Positions 2,127-42,279 of a stretch of 43,215 nucleotides of DNA are shown here, piece after piece. The notes beneath the pieces are model-generated. The model saw nothing but the letters and a program-made list of their open reading frames with translations, had not been told where the DNA came from and ran no database searches. The first letter of the stretch is position 1; each line of letters opens with the position of its first letter. A program made the translations under genes and the position numbers. Source of the stretch: a virus; UHGV virus genome UHGV-0324072. One strand, 5' to 3'.

Positions 2127-4361
2127 CTATTCCAAATCCTCCTCTGTCACCACCAGCATCTCATTTGGTTCGTATAGTGTCTTCGGCCTTAATCTATCCC
2201 CTATTCTTTCGGGTATACGATATGTTCTCGGTACTACTTCGCCGTTAGCATCGCAACCAAGCATTAGTTCTCCATCTTTCAACATTTTATCAAGATGGGT
2301 GTTAGTCACAGAGAAGTCACCGGAACGAGCCACTATCTGCTGCTGAGTAAAACCGCGACCTGTGTCATCTGACTGTTGCAGGTCTTCCAGTGCCGAAAGT
2401 ATTGACTCCTTCCTTACTTCATCCCTGCCGCGTTTAACTTCTTCCTTTACTTTTTGCTTACCTTCTTTCGTCAACCCTTCTTCCCGCTCTTTCTCCTCGT
2501 CAGTTTTGAACGGCTCGAAACCCCACGGCATCAACACAAGCGCCTTGTGTGGTTCAGGAAGGTCCAGGTTTACGATTGTGCCGTATTCTTCTGTGCCCCC
2601 CAGGAACTCAACCGCACGGTACTCTTTCGGCGGCGGAGCTTCGCGGAACTGCACAGACTCCAGCACCATGCCAACCGTTTTCTGTTGAGGACCGTGCTTA
2701 AATTTCGAGTGGTATACGTTTATTTGACGGTCGGTTGCACGTTCGATTGTCAGTTCCACGTCAACACCCGCATACAGCGCCCCACTGCCGCGTGCTTTCT
2801 TTCCGCCCTTCTGCGTATGGTGGACAACGCCTACTGCGGCTTTAGTTGCATCGCGTACTTCTTTCAGAATGGCGATAACTTTACCCATGCCGATTGCTGT
2901 TGATGAACTGTTCTCGTCGAACTTATCAATCGTCAGTGCCAGGGTCTGGTTAAGGGTGTCGAACGCAACCATGCCAATTGGCTCGTCGCCAGCAGTTTCG
3001 CGCATTAACTTAATCAGGCTTTTAAGTTTGCCGACTTCGCCCATATCGATGACGTGTACATAATCTTTACCTTCCCCGCCATATTTAGCCGCTAGTGCAT
3101 CAATACGGGTGCGTGTAGCTGCGCCACCCTCACCATCAATATAGAAATGGTGGCAACGCTGGGTATCCGCCCCCGCAAACCTGTACCCGGCGGCGCTGAG
3201 GTACATCATCCCCAGCGTATAGAACGATTTGTACGTGCCAGATTCCCCGACGATATCCCAGATACAATCCGACGGCATGTACCCCTCAACGACGAAATCA
3301 GCCTTTACCGGCTCCGGTAACTCGTCCCCCTCTGAGTCCTCCTCTGAGTCCTCGTCGTCTTCCAGGTCGTCGAGGCTGCAAGTTACTGGGTCCTCGTTCT
3401 CTGTGCGGTGTAGTTCTTCAATCTCTTCTTCCGGTAAATCAGGCAGAGCCGCACGAATGCTGTTAATGCTGATAGGTTGCTTGTCTACGTTAAGCTCGTC
3501 TGGCAGGCCGCACATACGCAGGGCCAAATGCTGTCGGCGGTTAAGCTCGGTGCAAGCGCCGTTGTTTGTATGCTGGCAGACAAAGCGCACTTCTTTACCG
3601 TCGAGCATTATGCTGGTGGAGCCCTTGCCTGTATGCAGATGTTCGTTAGGGCATGGCACTTCGTACCCGCGCCCGGAAGATAAAGCGTCAAGGCCAAGCT
3701 CGGCTTCGCAGAAGTGTGCTATATCCGCGTTAAGCCCATGCTCATCAGCGGCAAGTGTTTTAGCCTCACGCTTACGCAACCCCATCTCTTCGGCTTTCTT
3801 GATGTACCGCTCGGCACGGATAACACGCCCTTCTGTAACCGTTATCTTCGACTCTTTGTGCGGCAGGTAGATAAGGCGGTTGCCATCTTCCGTGCAGTGG
3901 TCGCGCAACGCTTCGTCTATTTCTAACTCTGCACAAATAGCACGTTGCACCATCCACGCGTCGTTAGAGTTAAACGGCGTGCGAGCTGGAACCAGAACGC
4001 GGAAAGCGTAATCTCCGTTTTTACACACATGCTGATGCGATGCCGTTGTATGCAGAATATTGAAGAACGGTGCGTTCTTGAATTTGCGGGTAAGGTCGCG
4101 GTACTGAGTACGGTTGAGATGGTCAAAATCGAACTTAACCACACTGTCTTCCAGAATAGCGTTCTTACGGCGACCGCCAACAGGCGCAATAGCTTTCTGT
4201 TTAATCTTGGCCGCGTCGTACTCTTCCTTAGTCCATGACGGGTCCACGGATAAACGCTTCGATGTATCGCAGACATACTCCACAAACTGCTCGAGCGGCA
4301 TCTCACGCGCTACAGGGTTTTTATCGAATGTGTTACGCAGCGTTGCAAAAACAATATTCAT
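2127..4361 (-). CDS. DNA primase/helicase fusion (N-terminal primase-polymerase-like region, C-terminal RecA-fold replicative helicase)
   Basis: 744-aa ORF; Walker A-like GESGTYKSF, RecA/DnaB-like helicase segment; Cys/His-rich zinc-binding-like central region; C-terminus VVTEEDLE. Confidence 0.7.
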   Translation of the reverse strand: MNIVFATLRNTFDKNPVAREMPLEQFVEYVCDTSKRLSVDPSWTKEEYDAAKIKQKAIAPVGGRRKNAILEDSVVKFDFDHLNRTQYRDLTRKFKNAPFFNILHTTASHQHVCKNGDYAFRVLVPARTPFNSNDAWMVQRAICAELEIDEALRDHCTEDGNRLIYLPHKESKITVTEGRVIRAERYIKKAEEMGLRKREAKTLAADEHGLNADIAHFCEAELGLDALSSGRGYEVPCPNEHLHTGKGSTSIMLDGKEVRFVCQHTNNGACTELNRRQHLALRMCGLPDELNVDKQPISINSIRAALPDLPEEEIEELHRTENEDPVTCSLDDLEDDEDSEEDSEGDELPEPVKADFVVEGYMPSDCIWDIVGESGTYKSFYTLGMMYLSAAGYRFAGADTQRCHHFYIDGEGGAATRTRIDALAAKYGGEGKDYVHVIDMGEVGKLKSLIKLMRETAGDEPIGMVAFDTLNQTLALTIDKFDENSSSTAIGMGKVIAILKEVRDATKAAVGVVHHTQKGGKKARGSGALYAGVDVELTIERATDRQINVYHSKFKHGPQQKTVGMVLESVQFREAPPPKEYRAVEFLGGTEEYGTIVNLDLPEPHKALVLMPWGFEPFKTDEEKEREEGLTKEGKQKVKEEVKRGRDEVRKESILSALEDLQQSDDTGRGFTQQQIVARSGDFSVTNTHLDKMLKDGELMLGCDANGEVVPRTYRIPERIGDRLRPKTLYEPNEMLVVTEEDLE
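2130..2147. repeat. 18-bp exact repeat TTCCAAATCCTCCTCTGT (second copy 42550..42567), encoding C-terminal TEEDLE of two replication proteins
   Basis: identical nucleotide strings at both gene 3' ends. Confidence 0.8.
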
Positions 4362-4526: not shown

Positions 4527-4558
4527 CCCCGACGTTCTGGCGTTGGGGTTTCTTTTTA
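4527..4558 (+). terminator. plus-strand hairpin plus T-run inside a minus-strand gene block
   Basis: CCCCGACG-ttctgg-CGTTGGGG then TTTCTTTTT; T-run only on plus strand. Confidence 0.3.
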
Positions 4559-4846
4559 CCGTTTAGCCAACCCTTCCAGCAAATTTTTATACTCTTCAAA
4601 ATATTCCTCGACCAAATCATCGCCGAAATAGAAGTCGATATACTCGAGATTATCTCTTACGTTAAGCGATGCCGACATGGTGCTTAGTTGGCGTAAGCTA
4701 ATTAGCTTCATTTCTGTTTCTACGCAGAAAGGCCGGTAGGTATCAAGATGGCAAGAGATATTGAAGCATAAAGCGAACTCTCCGGCCACGGAGTGAACCA
4801 TATACACTTCGTTTTCTGCTTTATTGTGGAAAATTACGCCTTTCAT
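4556..4846 (-). CDS. hypothetical protein (96 aa), coupled to AlpA-like regulator gene
   Basis: ORF track; ATG 4846 overlaps stop of upstream gene (ATGA). Confidence 0.5.
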   Translation of the reverse strand: MKGVIFHNKAENEVYMVHSVAGEFALCFNISCHLDTYRPFCVETEMKLISLRQLSTMSASLNVRDNLEYIDFYFGDDLVEEYFEEYKNLLEGLAKR

Positions 4847-5025
4847 TTCACGTTCTCCTTAATCCATGCTTCGACTTTATTACGGTCAAATGTTCCCGGT
4901 AAACGGCGGCCCATAACCTTAATACAGCAGTCAGGGAATTTGCCGCTGCGCAACCAGTTATTAATGGTCTGACGTGTCACCCCGATACGCTCGGCTACCT
5001 CATTCTGTGTCATGTAATGTTGCAT
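4843..5025 (-). CDS. AlpA/excisionase-family HTH DNA-binding protein (60 aa)
   Basis: ATG at 5025 (RBS AGGGGA); MTQNEVAERIGVTRQTINNWLRSGKFP typical AlpA-type HTH; track start is an upstream alternative codon. Confidence 0.55.
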   Translation of the reverse strand: MQHYMTQNEVAERIGVTRQTINNWLRSGKFPDCCIKVMGRRLPGTFDRNKVEAWIKENVK

Positions 5026-5056
5026 TTTTATATCCCCTGTTTGTTTAGTGAAACCG

Positions 5057-5085
5057 AGTATAGGATAGCGGGAATGTAAAAGCAA
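5057..5085 (-). promoter_or_regulatory. candidate sigma70 promoter for AlpA-like operon (TTGCTT-N17-TATACT, minus strand)
   Basis: rc of 5057..5085. Confidence 0.4.
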
Positions 5086-5122
5086 CCAATCCCTGCAATA
5101 TTTAATCTTTACAAAAAAGTTA

Positions 5123-5152
5123 TTGAAAGTTCTTGACACATGTTTGTATAAT
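5123..5152 (+). promoter_or_regulatory. candidate sigma70 promoter (TTGAAA-N18-TATAAT) facing a 350-bp ORF-free region
   Basis: TTGAAA 5123..5128, TATAAT 5147..5152. Confidence 0.45.
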
Positions 5153-5159
5153 GGTTTTG

Positions 5160-5380
5160 GGACTTGTATATATTACGGAGTTGACGAACCCTCCCCGAGG
5201 GATTCGTCAACCCCTCCCAGACAGCTGAGATGCTTGCCTTGTGGTTTAAGGATAAGTGTATCTAAATCTCATTTAAAGAAGTAACCCGCTGAAATATCTA
5301 CTGTTTCTTAATGTGCCGTAGATTCGCAACCGTAAAAATGTAACGATTATTGGGCAGGCCCTAAGCCTGCCCTTTAGTTA
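5160..5380 (+). ncRNA. candidate small non-coding RNA between promoter 5123..5152 and terminator 5353..5380
   Basis: no ORF over 11 codons on plus strand; 13-bp stem-loop 5181..5210 near the 5' end; GGGCAGGC-ctaa-GCCTGCCC plus TTTAGTT terminator at 3' end. Confidence 0.25.
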
Positions 5381-5444
5381 CCAAGTAATAAGAATAAAGG
5401 CACAACAGTTTCGAAAGAATCACAACGGCAACGTAACTATTCTC

Positions 5445-5473
5445 TTGCACACCACAACATAATAGGATACTAT
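5445..5473 (+). promoter_or_regulatory. early promoter, class TTGCAC-N17-TACTATTCA
   Basis: TTGCAC 5445..5450, TACTAT 5468..5473. Confidence 0.5.
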
Positions 5474-5507
5474 TCACTTATCGAAACGAGACAGAGGAGT
5501 GAGGGTT

Positions 5508-5699
5508 ATGTTTAAGAAGGGTCAGTTGGTTAAAACTAAACGCGGATGGCAATATGTATTAGTGTTGCAGGACGAGAGCGAGTATGACGAGGATAATCTG
5601 GTTGACGTATGGGGTCTGGTAAGAAAGAAAACTGGGTTCGCCTCCCGCGATAATTTAGAACTCATCGGCAACAATTTTAAATTCAAAGGGGCGAAGTGA
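5508..5699 (+). CDS. hypothetical protein (63 aa)
   Basis: ATG 5508 behind GAGGAGTGAGGG RBS; track start at 5499 is GTG. Confidence 0.45.
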   Translation: MFKKGQLVKTKRGWQYVLVLQDESEYDEDNLVDVWGLVRKKTGFASRDNLELIGNNFKFKGAK

Positions 5700-6276: not shown

Positions 6277-6516
6277 ATGGGCGAGTGGATTAAGTGTAGT
6301 GAGATGCTGCCAGGTAATGGGTATACAGATAAAGAGTTCCTGGTGTATGAAACGTTAAATAACGCAGTTCAACACGATTATTACATCGTTCCTGATGACG
6401 GGAGAAAGCCTTTCTGGAATAACTACGATAAGTACGTGACGCACTGGATGCCGTTACCCGAGCCGCCAGAAGTGTTATGTTATACTGTAACAATAGTTTG
6501 GGATTTTACTGAGTGA
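6277..6516 (+). CDS. DUF551-like phage protein (79 aa)
   Basis: ORF track; C-terminal THWMPLPEPP motif recalled as DUF551 signature. Confidence 0.45.
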   Translation: MGEWIKCSEMLPGNGYTDKEFLVYETLNNAVQHDYYIVPDDGRKPFWNNYDKYVTHWMPLPEPPEVLCYTVTIVWDFTE

Positions 6517-6518
6517 CC

Positions 6519-6555
6519 TACGCTGCTACACAGCAGCGTATCATTTTTCTCATTT
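6519..6555 (+). terminator. rho-independent terminator
   Basis: TACGCTGCT-acac-AGCAGCGTA then TCATTTTTCTCATTTTTG. Confidence 0.55.
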
Positions 6556-6633
6556 TTGTTCTATTTCACCAAACGCAACAATCGAAGCGACTATTGCGGG
6601 AGACGCAACAATACAAACACCAATAAAATTTAC

Positions 6634-6662
6634 TTGCACGCTGGGATAGAATAGGCTACTAT
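6634..6662 (+). promoter_or_regulatory. early promoter, class TTGCAC-N17-TACTATTCA
   Basis: TTGCAC 6634..6639, TACTAT 6657..6662. Confidence 0.5.
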
Positions 6663-6691
6663 TCATTTACACAAACGAGAGGAGAGATAAT

Positions 6692-6961
6692 ATGGTACAG
6701 AGATATGAGGTAAAAGCGTGGGGCCTGCCAGAGCCTGAGATGGCTGAGTACGCATACGGCGATTATGTAGAGTACGACAGCTATAAGGAACTGGACGACT
6801 ATTACCAGGAACGTCTAGCCGACGCCGACAAGGAAATAGAAGGGCTTGTGTCGAGACTGGCAGAAGTAAACGCCGAGCTACAGAAATACAAAGACCAGTA
6901 CCCTGATTACGTCGAGTGCGCGAACTGCGGGTCGGTTACACATGTGGAGGGGGTGGAGTGA
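6692..6961 (+). CDS. hypothetical protein (89 aa)
   Basis: ORF track; RBS GAGGAGAG. Confidence 0.5.
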   Translation: MVQRYEVKAWGLPEPEMAEYAYGDYVEYDSYKELDDYYQERLADADKEIEGLVSRLAEVNAELQKYKDQYPDYVECANCGSVTHVEGVE

Positions 6962-7254
6962 TGTCGTTAGCAACTGACATCCTGAAACGAAGCGGCCTTG
7001 CGCCGCTGTCACCGAGAGCGAAGACACGTATACACAAGCGTCGCCGTAACGTGCTGTACCCAGAGATACAAGAACGGCGTAAAGCTATCCGCGCCTGTGG
7101 ATTCCAGAACGGAAAGGCCGTGAATCTCGGTGAGTTTAAAACAAAGGAACGCGCAGCTATCGCGAACCGGCTATTTAATTACTGGAAATCGCTGGGGTAC
7201 GATGATATTCCGACGAAACCACAGAGACGACAATACATCTGGAGACATAAATGA
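6961..7254 (+). CDS. basic hypothetical protein (97 aa)
   Basis: ATG 6961 overlapping upstream stop; track start 6916 is an alternative codon. Confidence 0.45.
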   Translation: MSLATDILKRSGLAPLSPRAKTRIHKRRRNVLYPEIQERRKAIRACGFQNGKAVNLGEFKTKERAAIANRLFNYWKSLGYDDIPTKPQRRQYIWRHK

Positions 7255-8900: not shown

Positions 8901-8964
8901 CACCTGAGACTAATCCGACGATACTTAAATCACCTCCTGTTCCATACCTCTGCTCTCCAGTTTT

Positions 8965-8998
8965 ATCCCGGCCCTGACCCAGCCGGGATTTTTTTTAT
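8965..8998 (+). terminator. rho-independent terminator after endolysin
   Basis: TCCCGG...CCGGGA hairpin followed by TTTTTTTT. Confidence 0.65.
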
Positions 8999-9018
8999 CT
9001 ATTTTCTGCAATGACTAG

Positions 9019-9047
9019 TTGACTATTACCTACGACCCTATTATATT
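9019..9047 (+). promoter_or_regulatory. sigma70-like promoter TTGACT-N17-TATATT
   Basis: TTGACT 9019..9024, TATATT 9042..9047. Confidence 0.45.
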
Positions 9048-9080: not shown

Positions 9081-9278
9081 ATGAGTAACGTACAGACAAT
9101 CGCAATAACCGAGGAACTTGAAGCCAAATGTATCGCATCAGTTATAGGGAATGGTTCGGTGGAAAAACTACAGATGAGGGCCGCTGCGGGCTACATACGC
9201 AGGGCTAATAGTGCGATGAATGATTCCTTACGTAAACGTTACCTCATGAAAGCGTTAGAAATTCTGGAGAATAAGTAA
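9081..9278 (+). CDS. hypothetical protein (65 aa)
   Basis: ORF track. Confidence 0.45.
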   Translation: MSNVQTIAITEELEAKCIASVIGNGSVEKLQMRAAAGYIRRANSAMNDSLRKRYLMKALEILENK

Positions 9279-16795: not shown

Positions 16796-16816
16796 AAGGC
16801 CCCATTACGGGGCCTT
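16796..16816. terminator. bidirectional hairpin terminator AAGGCCCC-attac-GGGGCCTT
   Basis: between convergent genes 16331..16792 and 16822..17025. Confidence 0.6.
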
Positions 16817-16821
16817 AGTTT

Positions 16822-17025
16822 TCAACGGAATTTTGTGTTTAAATCCTGCTCATGGACAACCCTCAGAACAGTGTCATAATCCCCGTATCTTCCAGGTTCA
16901 AATATATCTAATGCCTTGTAAGCAGACATTGCGTCAGGGAAAACCTGCAGAACCTTTTTAACCCGGCACAAGTCACCGTCGAACTCTTCATCGAACTCTT
17001 GAACTACTTCGCAAATTGCATACAT
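16822..17025 (-). CDS. hypothetical protein (67 aa), reverse-oriented insertion with own promoter
   Basis: ATG 17025, RBS AGGAGG; promoter 17053..17081. Confidence 0.5.
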   Translation of the reverse strand: MYAICEVVQEFDEEFDGDLCRVKKVLQVFPDAMSAYKALDIFEPGRYGDYDTVLRVVHEQDLNTKFR

Positions 17026-17052
17026 TTTTCACCTCCTGTTTAAGTTAACTGA

Positions 17053-17081
17053 ATAGTACCCTATTATATTGGGGTGTGCAA
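17053..17081 (-). promoter_or_regulatory. promoter TTGCAC-N17-TACTATTCA (minus strand)
   Basis: rc of 17053..17081; 31-bp core almost identical to 26174..26204. Confidence 0.5.
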
Positions 17082-17133: not shown

Positions 17134-17149
17134 AACTATTCGAATAGTT
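17134..17149. promoter_or_regulatory. perfect 16-bp palindrome AACTATTCGAATAGTT (candidate operator)
   Basis: self-complementary; overlaps TTGACT (17148..17153) of a candidate plus-strand promoter. Confidence 0.45.
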
Positions 17150-17182
17150 GACTTTTCACTAAAAATATGATAAGCTCCACCT

Positions 17183-17383
17183 GAGCTTGTGAAGTATGAA
17201 CAAGCGACCGCGGCGCGGGCAGGTAACGGAGCGGGACGTAAGTCCTGAGTGTAGTTACGCTGACGCGTTCGGAAGGGCCATACTCTATTGCTTGTGTAAA
17301 AAGTAACTGGTTTACTGAGATTACGCCGTTTCTATGTTTAAATGATAAGGACTAGCGCCCCGCTTTATGGCGGGGCTTTACTT
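17183..17383 (+). ncRNA. candidate small RNA or leader transcript, ending at terminator 17357..17383
   Basis: about 200 bp with no ORF over 37 codons, between candidate promoter (TTGACT 17148 / TAAGCT 17171) and GCCCCGC-tttatg-GCGGGGC plus TTTACTT. Confidence 0.2.
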
Positions 17384-17400
17384 ATCGAGAAAGGGGAAAC

Positions 17401-26175: not shown

Positions 26176-26204
26176 ATAGTACACTATTATATTGGGGTGT
26201 GCAA
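26176..26204 (-). promoter_or_regulatory. promoter TTGCAC-N17-TACTATTCA (minus strand) driving reverse cassette
   Basis: rc of 26176..26204; near-identical to 17053..17081. Confidence 0.5.
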
Positions 26205-41652: not shown

Positions 41653-42279
41653 TTAACGGCGGCGACGTTCGCGGCGCGGTGCTTCATCTTCTTCGTCGTC
41701 TTCCAGGTCGTCGACGCTTGCAGCAACTTTAGAGCCTCCAAACGCTTTACCTTCGCCAACGTACTTAATTGCCAGCAGGTTAACGCCGAGTACTTTATAT
41801 TTCTGGCTGAACCAGATTTCAACGCTTACGTTAGCGACGCAGCCACTGTACACCTGTTCACCTTCAATCTGTTCGCCTTCTACATTGAAGTCTGGTTCTA
41901 CCTGAGTTTCGCCTTTTTTAGATGTTACAATCAGAGGTTGTTTCTGCGCTTTCGCTTTGAAGTAGAAACCTTCCGGGAAGTCTTCAAACGGATTGTCGCG
42001 CTCGGCGATGTCCTTAATCGCGCATTTATCCATGTGCTTGCCTTCGCCGTAGTTTGACTTCATCCATTTCTCTGCGGCGGCTGCACCCAACGCTTCTTCA
42101 ACCACAGCGTAAACGGTGTCGTAGAGCGCGTCGATTTGAGCATGGTCAGACGGCAGGATGATAGTTGCGCTGTACTGGCCTTTAGTGATTGAGCCGTCGT
42201 CGTTTTCACGGTCTTTTTCGCGTTCGAATACGTTAACCCATGCAGTGTTTACTTTACGCAGATTCAGTTTAATGCCCAT
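41653..42279 (-). CDS. putative ssDNA-binding protein (DUF2815-like)
   Basis: 208 aa; acidic DDLEDDEEDE tract near C-terminus; first gene behind promoter 42333..42361; family call from memory. Confidence 0.4.
   Translation of the reverse strand: MGIKLNLRKVNTAWVNVFEREKDRENDDGSITKGQYSATIILPSDHAQIDALYDTVYAVVEEALGAAAAEKWMKSNYGEGKHMDKCAIKDIAERDNPFEDFPEGFYFKAKAQKQPLIVTSKKGETQVEPDFNVEGEQIEGEQVYSGCVANVSVEIWFSQKYKVLGVNLLAIKYVGEGKAFGGSKVAASVDDLEDDEEDEAPRRERRRR

Follow-up and report, generated by a model that had tools for sequence, protein, structure and literature searches.

A predicted promoter-to-terminator RNA unit in a Kagunavirus genome as one allele of a swappable candidate RNA-cassette slot of the Guernseyvirinae

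Small RNAs that act in trans are known from several phages, among them lambda OOP and PreS, P22 Sar, P1/P7 C4, P4 CI and the T4 species 1 and 2 RNAs, as are promoter-proximal elements that act in cis, including the lambda pR'-6S RNA-tR' late leader, the lambda N-nut and HK022 put sites, and the early leader of T7. Here we describe an interval at positions 5123-5380 on the plus strand of a 43,215-nucleotide (nt) viral sequence (UHGV-0324072; this whole stretch is referred to as the window) that resembles the trans-acting phage RNAs in being a free-standing promoter-to-terminator unit without an open reading frame (ORF), predicted to be read by the host polymerase and falling in the same ~80-250 nt size range. 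Unlike for those RNAs, neither an antisense partner nor a complementary target was found in the phage, and there is no Rfam match, C4 and the other phage RNA families included. The window represents the complete or near-complete genome of a Kagunavirus (Guernseyvirinae), a virulent E. coli siphophage, and over this region it is ~99% identical to phage LotteLoewe_Bas71. Our literature search found no paper on non-coding RNA in Guernseyvirinae; in kind, the unit is like known phage leaders and small RNAs, and as a family it is undescribed.

Taken together, the comparisons below make it probable that the interval specifies an expressed RNA-level element under selection. Our preferred reading, to which we give a rough probability of 0.4-0.45, is that of an autonomous, early, structured non-coding RNA of ~220 nt that acts in trans. 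Under this reading, host sigma-70 RNA polymerase would start at the promoter P1 (~5159/5160), transcribe a hairpin-rich RNA and mostly stop at an intrinsic terminator (~5376-5379), releasing an RNA of ~220 nt early in infection. The released RNA would itself be the functional product, working in trans on a host or phage partner, with a C-rich tract and an A/U-rich segment (both conserved and predicted to be single-stranded) as candidate contact surfaces, or with the hairpins serving as a protein decoy. An earlier first-pass annotation of this DNA had proposed a regulatory RNA of about 220 nt. An RNA-level element is indeed the best reading, based on a recurrent layout, a second copy in the same genome and covariation in related modules, and no support was found for the regulatory action in trans that the word implied.

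The promoter at the head of the unit, P1, reads TTGAAA-N18-TATAAT at 5123-5152 (+), exactly where the first-pass annotation had placed it, and is preceded by an A/T-rich tract (5100-5122). Its sequence fits the sigma-70 definition of near-consensus hexamers with a 16-18 nt spacer, with 11 of the 12 hexamer positions matching the consensus, and it is thus a predicted promoter of this class. Three matches of this quality exist in the whole genome (5123+, 1829- and 42361-), compared to 0.5 expected from shuffled sequences, and both hexamers are invariant in 12 aligned copies of the 5' module type carried by the window (type A). In addition, the record of phage fBC-Eco01 has both a host promoter and a terminator marked by its authors at homologous sites. 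With a start 7-8 nt past the -10 hexamer (~5159/5160) and an end within the U-tract of the terminator, the predicted primary transcript covers 5159-5379 (+), or ~220 nt.

The RNA from 5159 to 5380 folds better than each of 200 shuffled versions (z = -4.84). Its most prominent element is stem-loop 1 (5177-5214, +), the core of which, TTGACGAACCCTC-ccc-GAGGG-a-TTCGTCAA at 5181-5210, is a 13-bp stem with a single bulged base (A5202) and a CCC loop, just as it had originally been described. Extended by a G5180-C5211 pair and a GG/CC clamp, the structure reaches a computed free energy (dG) of -23.2 kcal/mol and lies within the four most stable 38-nt stretches of the 43,178 scored on both strands (mean -6.1, standard deviation 3.4). 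It is unchanged in the 12 aligned type-A copies save for one loop change, C5196T. Directly following the core is the C-rich tract CCCCTCCC (5211-5218, +), predicted to be mostly single-stranded, with some of its bases forming the clamp of stem-loop 1. C/U-rich stretches also come after the long hairpin in module types B, C and D; a role of the tract as a seed or rut-like site is speculation. A tentative hairpin 2 (CTTGCC, loop, GG-tt-TAAG; 5233-5250, +) is a weak structure with a hypervariable loop, for which the variants TTGT, TTGG, TTAG and CAAC make it one of the few polymorphic spots of the type-A 5' module, and a CC-to-TT change there keeps the pairing only as G·U, on the plus strand. The remainder up to the terminator is an A/U-rich linker (5255-5351, +; 33% GC for 5256-5351), which includes the start of a conserved 3' module, T1 (TGCCGTAGATTCGCAACCGTAAAAATGTAACGATTATT).

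The predicted intrinsic terminator, GGGCAGGC-CCTAA-GCCTGCCC with the tail TTTAGTT, occupies 5352-5379 (+). Its presence ahead of the next promoter had been noted correctly in the first-pass annotation, with two details to be amended: the stem starts at 5352 rather than 5353, and the loop has five nucleotides (CCTAA) rather than four. The stem (5352-5372; 8 bp, of which seven are G-C; dG -16.2 kcal/mol) and the 5-nt loop fit the definition of an intrinsic terminator, and the tail (5373-5379) has just three consecutive U followed by A, G and two further U. Like stem-loop 1, the terminator ranks with the most stable of the local structures. Among 10 variants, the loop differs freely; in the stem, a C-G pair is replaced once by U-A, an A-U pair once by G·U, and pairing is broken once. 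With one compensatory pair, and with 50 of 500 shuffles scoring equally well, this suggests weakly that the stem has been maintained in evolution. The T1 module as a whole is nearly identical across type-A Kagunaviruses, type-C Kagunaviruses and Salmonella Jerseyviruses. Downstream of the terminator lies the next promoter that had been claimed, P2 (TTGCAC-N17-TACTAT; 5445-5473, +), which serves the first rightward gene (ATG at 5508), forms the downstream boundary of the unit and is kept in nearly all relatives. As this promoter follows the terminator by ~70 nt, the downstream genes would not need P1, and the unit looks insulated.

The entire unit sits in a 482-nt spacer between the first leftward gene (4843-5025, -) and the ATG of the first rightward gene. 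In order to place this spacer among its relatives, the corresponding spacers were collected from 35 IMG/VR Kagunavirus contigs, 12 IMG/VR Jerseyvirus contigs and ~15 GenBank phages, and module types were sorted by eye. All 49 relatives scanned, from 50 collected, possess a strong promoter at a distance of 62-107 nt from the first leftward start codon; the gene concerned is a helix-turn-helix (HTH) gene except at two loci with an extra ORF. The layout of the slot also recurs: a strong sigma-70 promoter, 200-330 nt without a conserved ORF, usually a terminator, and then P2. The promoter at the P1 position differs by module type, with TTGAAA/TATAAT in type A, TTGACT/TAAGCT in types B, B' and B'', TTGACA with TAAGGT or TAAGTT in type C and Jerseyviruses, and TTGACA/TAAAAT in type D. 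Four 3' modules were distinguished: T1 has the GGGCAGGC terminator, T2 a compound hairpin and TTTT, T3 both a (CTCA)n repeat and a GGTGCC hairpin, and T4 (SETP3-type) no clear U-tract. These 3' modules reassort with the 5' modules (A, B, B', B'', C and D), the window being type A with T1, and the unrelated 5' modules A, B, C and D swap in front of the same downstream genes. Judged from these alignments, the interval is the type A allele of a fast-evolving, swappable putative RNA-cassette slot found in all Guernseyvirinae examined.

Type A itself is narrowly distributed. BLAST located its 5' half in 21 of 50,697 phage records, with identities of 97% or more throughout, and 12 further copies with an identical stem came from metagenomic or Logan contigs (two Joint Genome Institute metagenome contigs through a gapped anchor pattern and 10 through a linked 96-amino-acid protein). 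Variation among the 12 aligned copies is confined to C5196T, a hotspot at 5237-5242, single changes at 5224 and 5278-5288, and the terminator loop.

Covariance analysis across related phages, which had been proposed as a check on the RNA, gave different answers for different modules: types B and C show compensatory changes, and the type-A stem is invariant in 26 copies. The 26 distinct sequences of type C and its Jerseyvirus counterparts form a long irregular hairpin with a hypervariable tip, in which 99.5% of alignment cells are paired, compared to 31-52% when the pairing partners are slid. Three pairs show double changes (UA/CG; AU/GU/GC; GC/AU/UA), and none of 500 shuffles reaches the covariation score. 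For type B (13 sequences), 96.9% of cells are paired versus 30-45% after sliding, with four double-change pairs, one of which passes through AU/UA/CG. By our own tally of the per-pair tables, G·U makes up ~10% and ~18% of paired cells in types C and B, respectively, and as each such cell would be an A·C mismatch on the opposite strand, the folding strand is the strand transcribed from P1. The independent events are few (three and four pairs) and the sequences are related, and the evidence that types B and C have an RNA structure under selection on the transcribed strand is good without being overwhelming. For type A, a mode of action like that of types B and C is inferred by analogy.

A second cassette of this kind is present in the same genome. 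Searches with the type-B profile detected a paralogous locus at 17148-17385 (+), referred to here as locus 2, by nhmmer (17175-17292, E = 6.9e-27) and by the type-B covariance model R1 (17175-17312, 105.8 bits, E = 2.5e-26). It comprises a predicted promoter at 17148-17176 (TTGACT-N17-TAAGCT, extended by TGn), a long hairpin RNA resembling type B (17175-17312), and a 3' part with the motifs TCTATTG and AAGTAACTGG followed by the hairpin GCCCCGCT/GGCGGGGC (17357-17376) and the tail TTTACTTATC. Immediately downstream of this hairpin are the Shine-Dalgarno (SD) sequence and ATG of an Rz-like spanin (17401), then the scaffold and major head genes; upstream, a Hoc-like gene is followed by a rightward terminator, and a small leftward gene has a promoter of the P2 class. 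In 179 phage records, drawn from both genera, matches extend over at least 80% of the locus 2 query. Between the window and the Salmonella phages S103 and LSPA1 (both Jerseyviruses), the RNA unit is 96-98% identical, compared to 82-83% for the adjacent spanin (first 300 nt). The locus 2 copy of SETP3 is a diverged member (24 bits, E = 1e-4) with compensatory changes in its stem by eye and no U-tract.

Type A and the type-B family captured by model R1, which occupies locus 1 (the spacer slot) in some Kagunaviruses and locus 2 in many Kagunaviruses and Jerseyviruses, are alike in layout, in genomic slot and in the order of motifs in the 3' half (AAGTAAC, YGCCGT, AAATG, hairpin, TTTA(G/C)TTA(C/T)C). 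They are unlike in that type A has a simple 13-bp hairpin instead of a 70-nt long hairpin and gives no significant match to the model (7.1 bits, E = 3.5, for 5233-5294 of the window). Neither cassette matched any of 5,426 E. coli genomes by BLAST, nor did the type-A cassette match PLSDB plasmids, suggesting that the elements are not derived from the host or from plasmids. As far as sequence comparison reaches, the cassette behaves as a self-contained, gene-like unit, with two per genome and with parts that recombine.

For the preferred reading of a trans-acting RNA, the module swapping and the hypervariable tips look like those of an accessory, arms-race element. Hfq-dependent small RNAs typically combine a terminator with a long U-tail, an A/U-rich Hfq site and a conserved seed that is complementary to the targets; the predicted RNA has conserved single-stranded stretches (the T1 segment), its short U-tail is atypical for this class, and no phage target above chance was found. 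Target prediction, another of the checks originally suggested, was run within the phage and failed to favour the RNA: RNAduplex energies against 145 translation-initiation regions were no better than those of shuffled RNA.

Several further observations weigh against this reading. The longest exact complement of the RNA in the phage genome is 11 nt, and shuffles reach 10-13. The short U-tract means that termination may be partial. The 13-bp type-A stem and its closing helices show no variation in the 26 copies and hence have no covariation support of their own, and this near-invariance could reflect recent spread rather than selection. As the type-A 5' module has no significant match to type B (covariance model R1) or type C (nhmmer), and thus no detectable homology to either, the covariation evidence reaches type A by analogy only. 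At locus 2 the hairpin lies directly before the late genes with no promoter between, and SETP3-type phages lack a clear U-tract at both loci, two observations that favour a cis-acting leader. Finally, the sole Kagunavirus transcriptome study, on phage vB_Eco_K1B4, counted 57 annotated ORFs only, leaving the 482-nt spacer (6491-6972 in its coordinates, between genes _008 and _009) unannotated (PMC12645636). The same study classed the adjacent HTH gene as early; its genome, at 44,581 bp, has the same length as the type-A record OQ696342.1, and its time-course RNA sequencing is public (PMC12645636; PRJCA028359 / PRJNA939978).

The cis-acting leader is a serious rival that the first-pass annotation had not considered, and it follows from the position of locus 2 directly before the late genes. 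Here, the RNA and its hairpin would provide promoter-proximal control of the rightward operons, and the short RNA would be a terminated by-product, with read-through switched on by a phage or host factor; overall we consider this somewhat unlikely. Attenuation, processive antitermination (of the lambda pR'-6S RNA-tR', N-nut or HK022 put type) and an RNase III or stability element like the T7 early leader are possible modes. At locus 2 a gap of 24 nt separates the hairpin from the spanin gene, behind which lie the scaffold and major head genes, and with a rightward terminator at 16797-16816 upstream of the cassette, these late genes appear to depend on read-through of the leader. In addition, both cassettes point rightward and head two parts of the ~31-kb rightward gene cluster, SETP3-type phages have no canonical terminator at locus 1, the tails of the hairpins are similar (TTTAGTTACC and TTTACTTATC), and GCUUGCC (5232-5238) could pair with the 5' arm of the terminator, GGCAGGC (5353-5359), as a possible antiterminator.

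The promoters bear on this rival from both sides. The P2-class sequence matches the sigma-70 consensus poorly (7/12 by our own count) and is nevertheless kept over 29 nt at four sites, so it may need a phage factor, in which case P1 would remain the sole strong immediate rightward promoter. The 29-mer has four copies in the window versus 0.71 expected, at 5445-5473 (+), 6634-6662 (+), 17053-17081 (-) and 26176-26204 (-), and its spacer (~ACCCCAAYATAATAGNN) is also mostly conserved, pointing to a class of promoter specific to the phage or to the binding site of a regulator. On the other hand, the conserved promoter right after the locus 1 terminator would make read-through into the early genes unnecessary, and sigma-70-like promoters and terminator/promoter pairs recur along the cluster (8897, 9019, 11093), so that a single processive complex starting from P1 is not required. 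No boxA-like sequence (YGCTCTTTA-like, up to three mismatches) occurs in 5100-5400 or 17140-17400, no antiterminator protein is annotated, and the unrelated 5' modules A, B, C and D are interchangeable before the same downstream genes, all of which argue against a leader that acts in cis.

Comparison with the described cis-acting systems is similarly divided. The lambda pR'-6S RNA-tR' unit shares a strong constitutive sigma-70 promoter, an ORF-free transcript of ~200 nt (194 nt in lambda) and a terminator before lysis and morphogenesis genes. The position of locus 2 before spanin, scaffold and head genes reproduces this late-leader layout, and locus 1 does so in part, having a promoter after its terminator. 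Lambda Q acts through DNA and a sigma-dependent pause; in contrast, no Q-like protein is annotated in the window and, in the relatives, the RNA structure itself appears to be selected. The HK022 put and lambda N-nut sites are likewise promoter-proximal RNA hairpins that stand before terminators at the head of long operons, with variants exchangeable between related phages. The put sites are paired stem-loops, whereas the window has one 13-bp bulged hairpin and a weak second one, no boxA-like sequence and no annotated N-like gene. The T7 early leader, with its RNase III site R0.3, resembles the unit as an ORF-free leader after strong host promoters with an irregular double-stranded hairpin, conserved in structure and free in apical sequence. 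RNase III sites usually span about two helical turns, and the type-A stem, at ~16 bp, is shorter; T7 also passes from its leader to the first gene with neither a terminator nor a new promoter.

A terminated leader can double as a functional RNA, and the trans and cis readings are therefore compatible. A bolder proposal, which we regard as doubtful, is that of a two-locus RNA-cassette system in Guernseyvirinae, with strong sigma-70 promoters, exchangeable and fast-diverging early modules and a near-invariant late copy, whose RNAs would act directly on the machinery of host transcription or RNA decay, or else on a defence system. They might, for instance, modify RNA polymerase in a protein-independent, put-like way that times the late genes, or serve as decoy RNAs in an arms race, and type A would in that case solve the same task with a new structure. 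These possibilities matter as Guernseyvirinae (Kagunavirus and Jerseyvirus) are common candidates for therapy and biocontrol against E. coli and Salmonella and use the host RNA polymerase only; the annotation of the window genes contains neither a phage RNA polymerase nor an antiterminator. If the RNAs act in trans, they would add a new family to the short list of virulent-phage small RNAs, and if they are leaders, they would likely be the missing early/late switch. In either case, they would form a conserved and unannotated class of RNA elements behind strong promoters, one of them heading the late genes, for which natural swap variants already exist (A, B, B', B'', C and D in combination with T1-T4).

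The first-pass annotation had offered an origin-like structured region as its alternative, in which transcription from P1 through a structured, A/T-rich region would open or prime an origin in the style of the T7 primary origin, T4 oriF or ColE1 RNA II. The region does lie at the divergence point of the genome beside replication genes, the cumulative GC skew has its minimum at ~5 kb, a 33%-GC stretch comes after a strong promoter, and most relatives of types B, C and D have an exact integration host factor (IHF) consensus at the module junction. The skew minimum falls where gene orientation switches and so carries no independent information, and the IHF site is absent from the type A spacer, which has a degenerate version (ATCTACTGTTT), the four exact IHF matches of the window all lying outside 5026-5507. 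There are no iterons and no cluster of DnaA boxes, with a single one-mismatch box in the interval that overlaps the -10 hexamer at chance frequency. The helicase-primase does not co-vary with the module: among phages with the unrelated type A and B modules, its N-terminal 330 amino acids share at least 97.5% identity, and the HTH protein shares up to 100%. The G·U covariation is strand-specific, a paralogous cassette lies in the late region, and the RNA is balanced in G and C with no G-rich run that would favour an R-loop. Transcription-primed origins are similar in combining a promoter with a structured and then A/T-rich stretch and adjoining replication genes; this locus differs from them in having no promoter for an antisense RNA, no G-rich RNA segment, a helicase-primase that is not matched to the module, and a second copy among late genes. 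An origin is accordingly disfavoured, and we consider it very improbable.

The exact IHF consensus (WATCARNNNNTTR; on the other strand YAAnnnnYTGATW) was seen at the junction of 5' and 3' modules in Jerseyvirus spacers as well (sequences L003-L092, e.g., L004:1218-1230). A difference in the neighbouring replication genes was also observed: type C and D Kagunaviruses and Jerseyviruses have another replication protein beside the spacer (N-terminus MSDVILSYSW...; L024, L035) than types A and B (MNIVFATLRN...; 2127-4361 in the window), which indicates that the replication module is mosaic too.

The 30-bp palindrome that gives rise to stem-loop 1 could instead act at the level of DNA, as an operator for the adjacent HTH protein or for the 96-amino-acid protein linked to type A, controlling the divergent promoters. 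It is near-perfect, lies 29 bp past the -10 hexamer of P1 and stands beside the HTH_17 gene, and a variant of the 96-amino-acid protein (4556-4846, -) with at least 94% identity is encoded in 20 of 21 type-A records and in no other record, as well as in all 10 extra contigs. As its gene lies within 300 bp, this co-occurrence is explicable by physical linkage and was treated as a lead only. The palindrome runs through its centre with a 3-nt loop, which fits a hairpin better than two half-sites, and several phages whose HTH protein is identical to that of the window have type B modules, in which the palindrome is missing. The 96-amino-acid protein is acidic by eye, has close homologues only, no Pfam or PHROG match and, on a low-confidence AlphaFold model (predicted local distance difference test score 62), no significant fold match, and type B occurs with two different neighbouring genes. 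An operator function thus has, in our estimate, a very small chance of being correct. At the position of the 96-amino-acid gene, other module types have a 59%-identical homologue, a 70/77-amino-acid protein, or 77/91-amino-acid proteins that are winged-helix-like by eye.

It was also considered whether the unit is a functionless leftover of mosaic evolution, with a promoter and a terminator joined at a recombination hotspot and structure arising by chance. Mosaicism in the slot is high, variable accessory genes flank it, and type A has spread almost unchanged, which is compatible with recent transfer. Against this, all relatives, from two genera, share the layout and this genome has it twice, types B and C have compensatory changes, the locus 2 RNA is more conserved than the adjoining coding sequence, and the promoter and hairpin are extreme outliers, leaving this explanation a slim chance.

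Whether the interval encodes a small protein was assessed through its reading frames. The earlier statement that no ORF exceeds 11 codons holds for ATG starts past the predicted transcription start (the longest have 11 and 10 codons), and does not hold for TTG starts, which give 15-16 codons. The two ATG ORFs have no SD sequence, and the TTG ORFs (up to 16 codons) have none that is properly spaced. The 53- and 31-amino-acid ORFs of the mechanical ORF list start inside the promoter, upstream of the transcription start. A conserved, translated short ORF had been named as an outcome that would speak against the RNA, and none emerged, as start codons and reading frames are not conserved among relatives: the 11-codon ORF crosses the hypervariable site, and several T1 variants no longer have the ATG of the second (5311). 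On the nine metagenomic or Logan contigs (L114-L122) in which the 482-nt spacer is readable, independent gene callers left it without a gene. A small protein gene is therefore disfavoured.

GenBank ORF calls in the spacer disagree between records and consist of inconsistent minus-strand "hypothetical proteins", and the present analysis corrects several records that put such proteins on these RNAs. Locus 2 is either unannotated in GenBank records or lies under a spurious ORF such as Bas71_0007. Rfam 15 gave no match at the gathering threshold over the whole window, with best E-values of 1.7-9 in 4900-5600 at a permissive threshold, each falling well short of gathering, and nothing for types B, C and D (five other module types) or locus 2; ARAGORN detected no tRNA or tmRNA.

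The gene order around the unit is simple. A minus-strand block runs from ~36.3 kb through the window ends to 5.0 kb and contains the replication genes (AAA_25 helicase-primase, family A DNA polymerase and an Enc34-type single-stranded DNA-binding protein), and the plus-strand genes from 5.5 to 36.2 kb comprise small early genes followed by lysis, terminase, head and tail genes. The divergence from an AlpA-like operon that had been reported is real, with the first leftward gene (4843-5025, -) encoding an HTH_17 protein of the AlpA/Xis-like kind. The candidate leftward promoter of this HTH/helicase-primase operon, P_L (5057-5085, -), stands back to back with P1 and outside the predicted RNA. Its -35 element TTGCTT (the reverse complement of 5080-5085) and -10 element TATACT (the reverse complement of 5057-5062) are separated by 17 nt and match the consensus at 8 of 12 positions, below the listing level of the promoter scan; AGTATA, which corresponds to the -10, is kept in types A, B and C and in Jerseyviruses.

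Other features of the spacer and its surroundings were observed along the way. The T3 module contains a (CTCA)n microsatellite with variable copy number (~6 in L004, 3 in L007) between a conserved TGCCGTAG motif and a GGTGCC/GGCACC hairpin (L004, L007, L008, L012, L015 and L021; L004 ~1130-1190, minus). The TGCCGTAG motif was compared with the RfaH ops element, to which it matches at 7 of 12 positions by eye, and this was judged too weak and was not used. The two other 11/12 promoter matches of the genome, at 1829 (-) and 42361 (-), both read TTGACA-N17-TATAGT and point leftward within the replication block, upstream of a 166-amino-acid ORF (1269-1769) and of the single-stranded DNA-binding protein gene (41653-42279), respectively. 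To the left of locus 2, the slot at 16797-17081 is an insertion hotspot for leftward accessory genes (L107, L108, L110 and L111); the window has a 67-amino-acid ORF there, S103 an adenine methyltransferase, LSPA1 an endonuclease VII and K1G no gene, and the terminator at 16797-16816 looks bidirectional. Finally, at 8960-9047, a terminator (CCCGGC...GCCGGG followed by T8) comes after the endolysin gene and is followed by a promoter, TTGACT-N17-TATATT, for a gene at 9082, an arrangement that shows the rightward cluster to be split into several promoter/terminator units.

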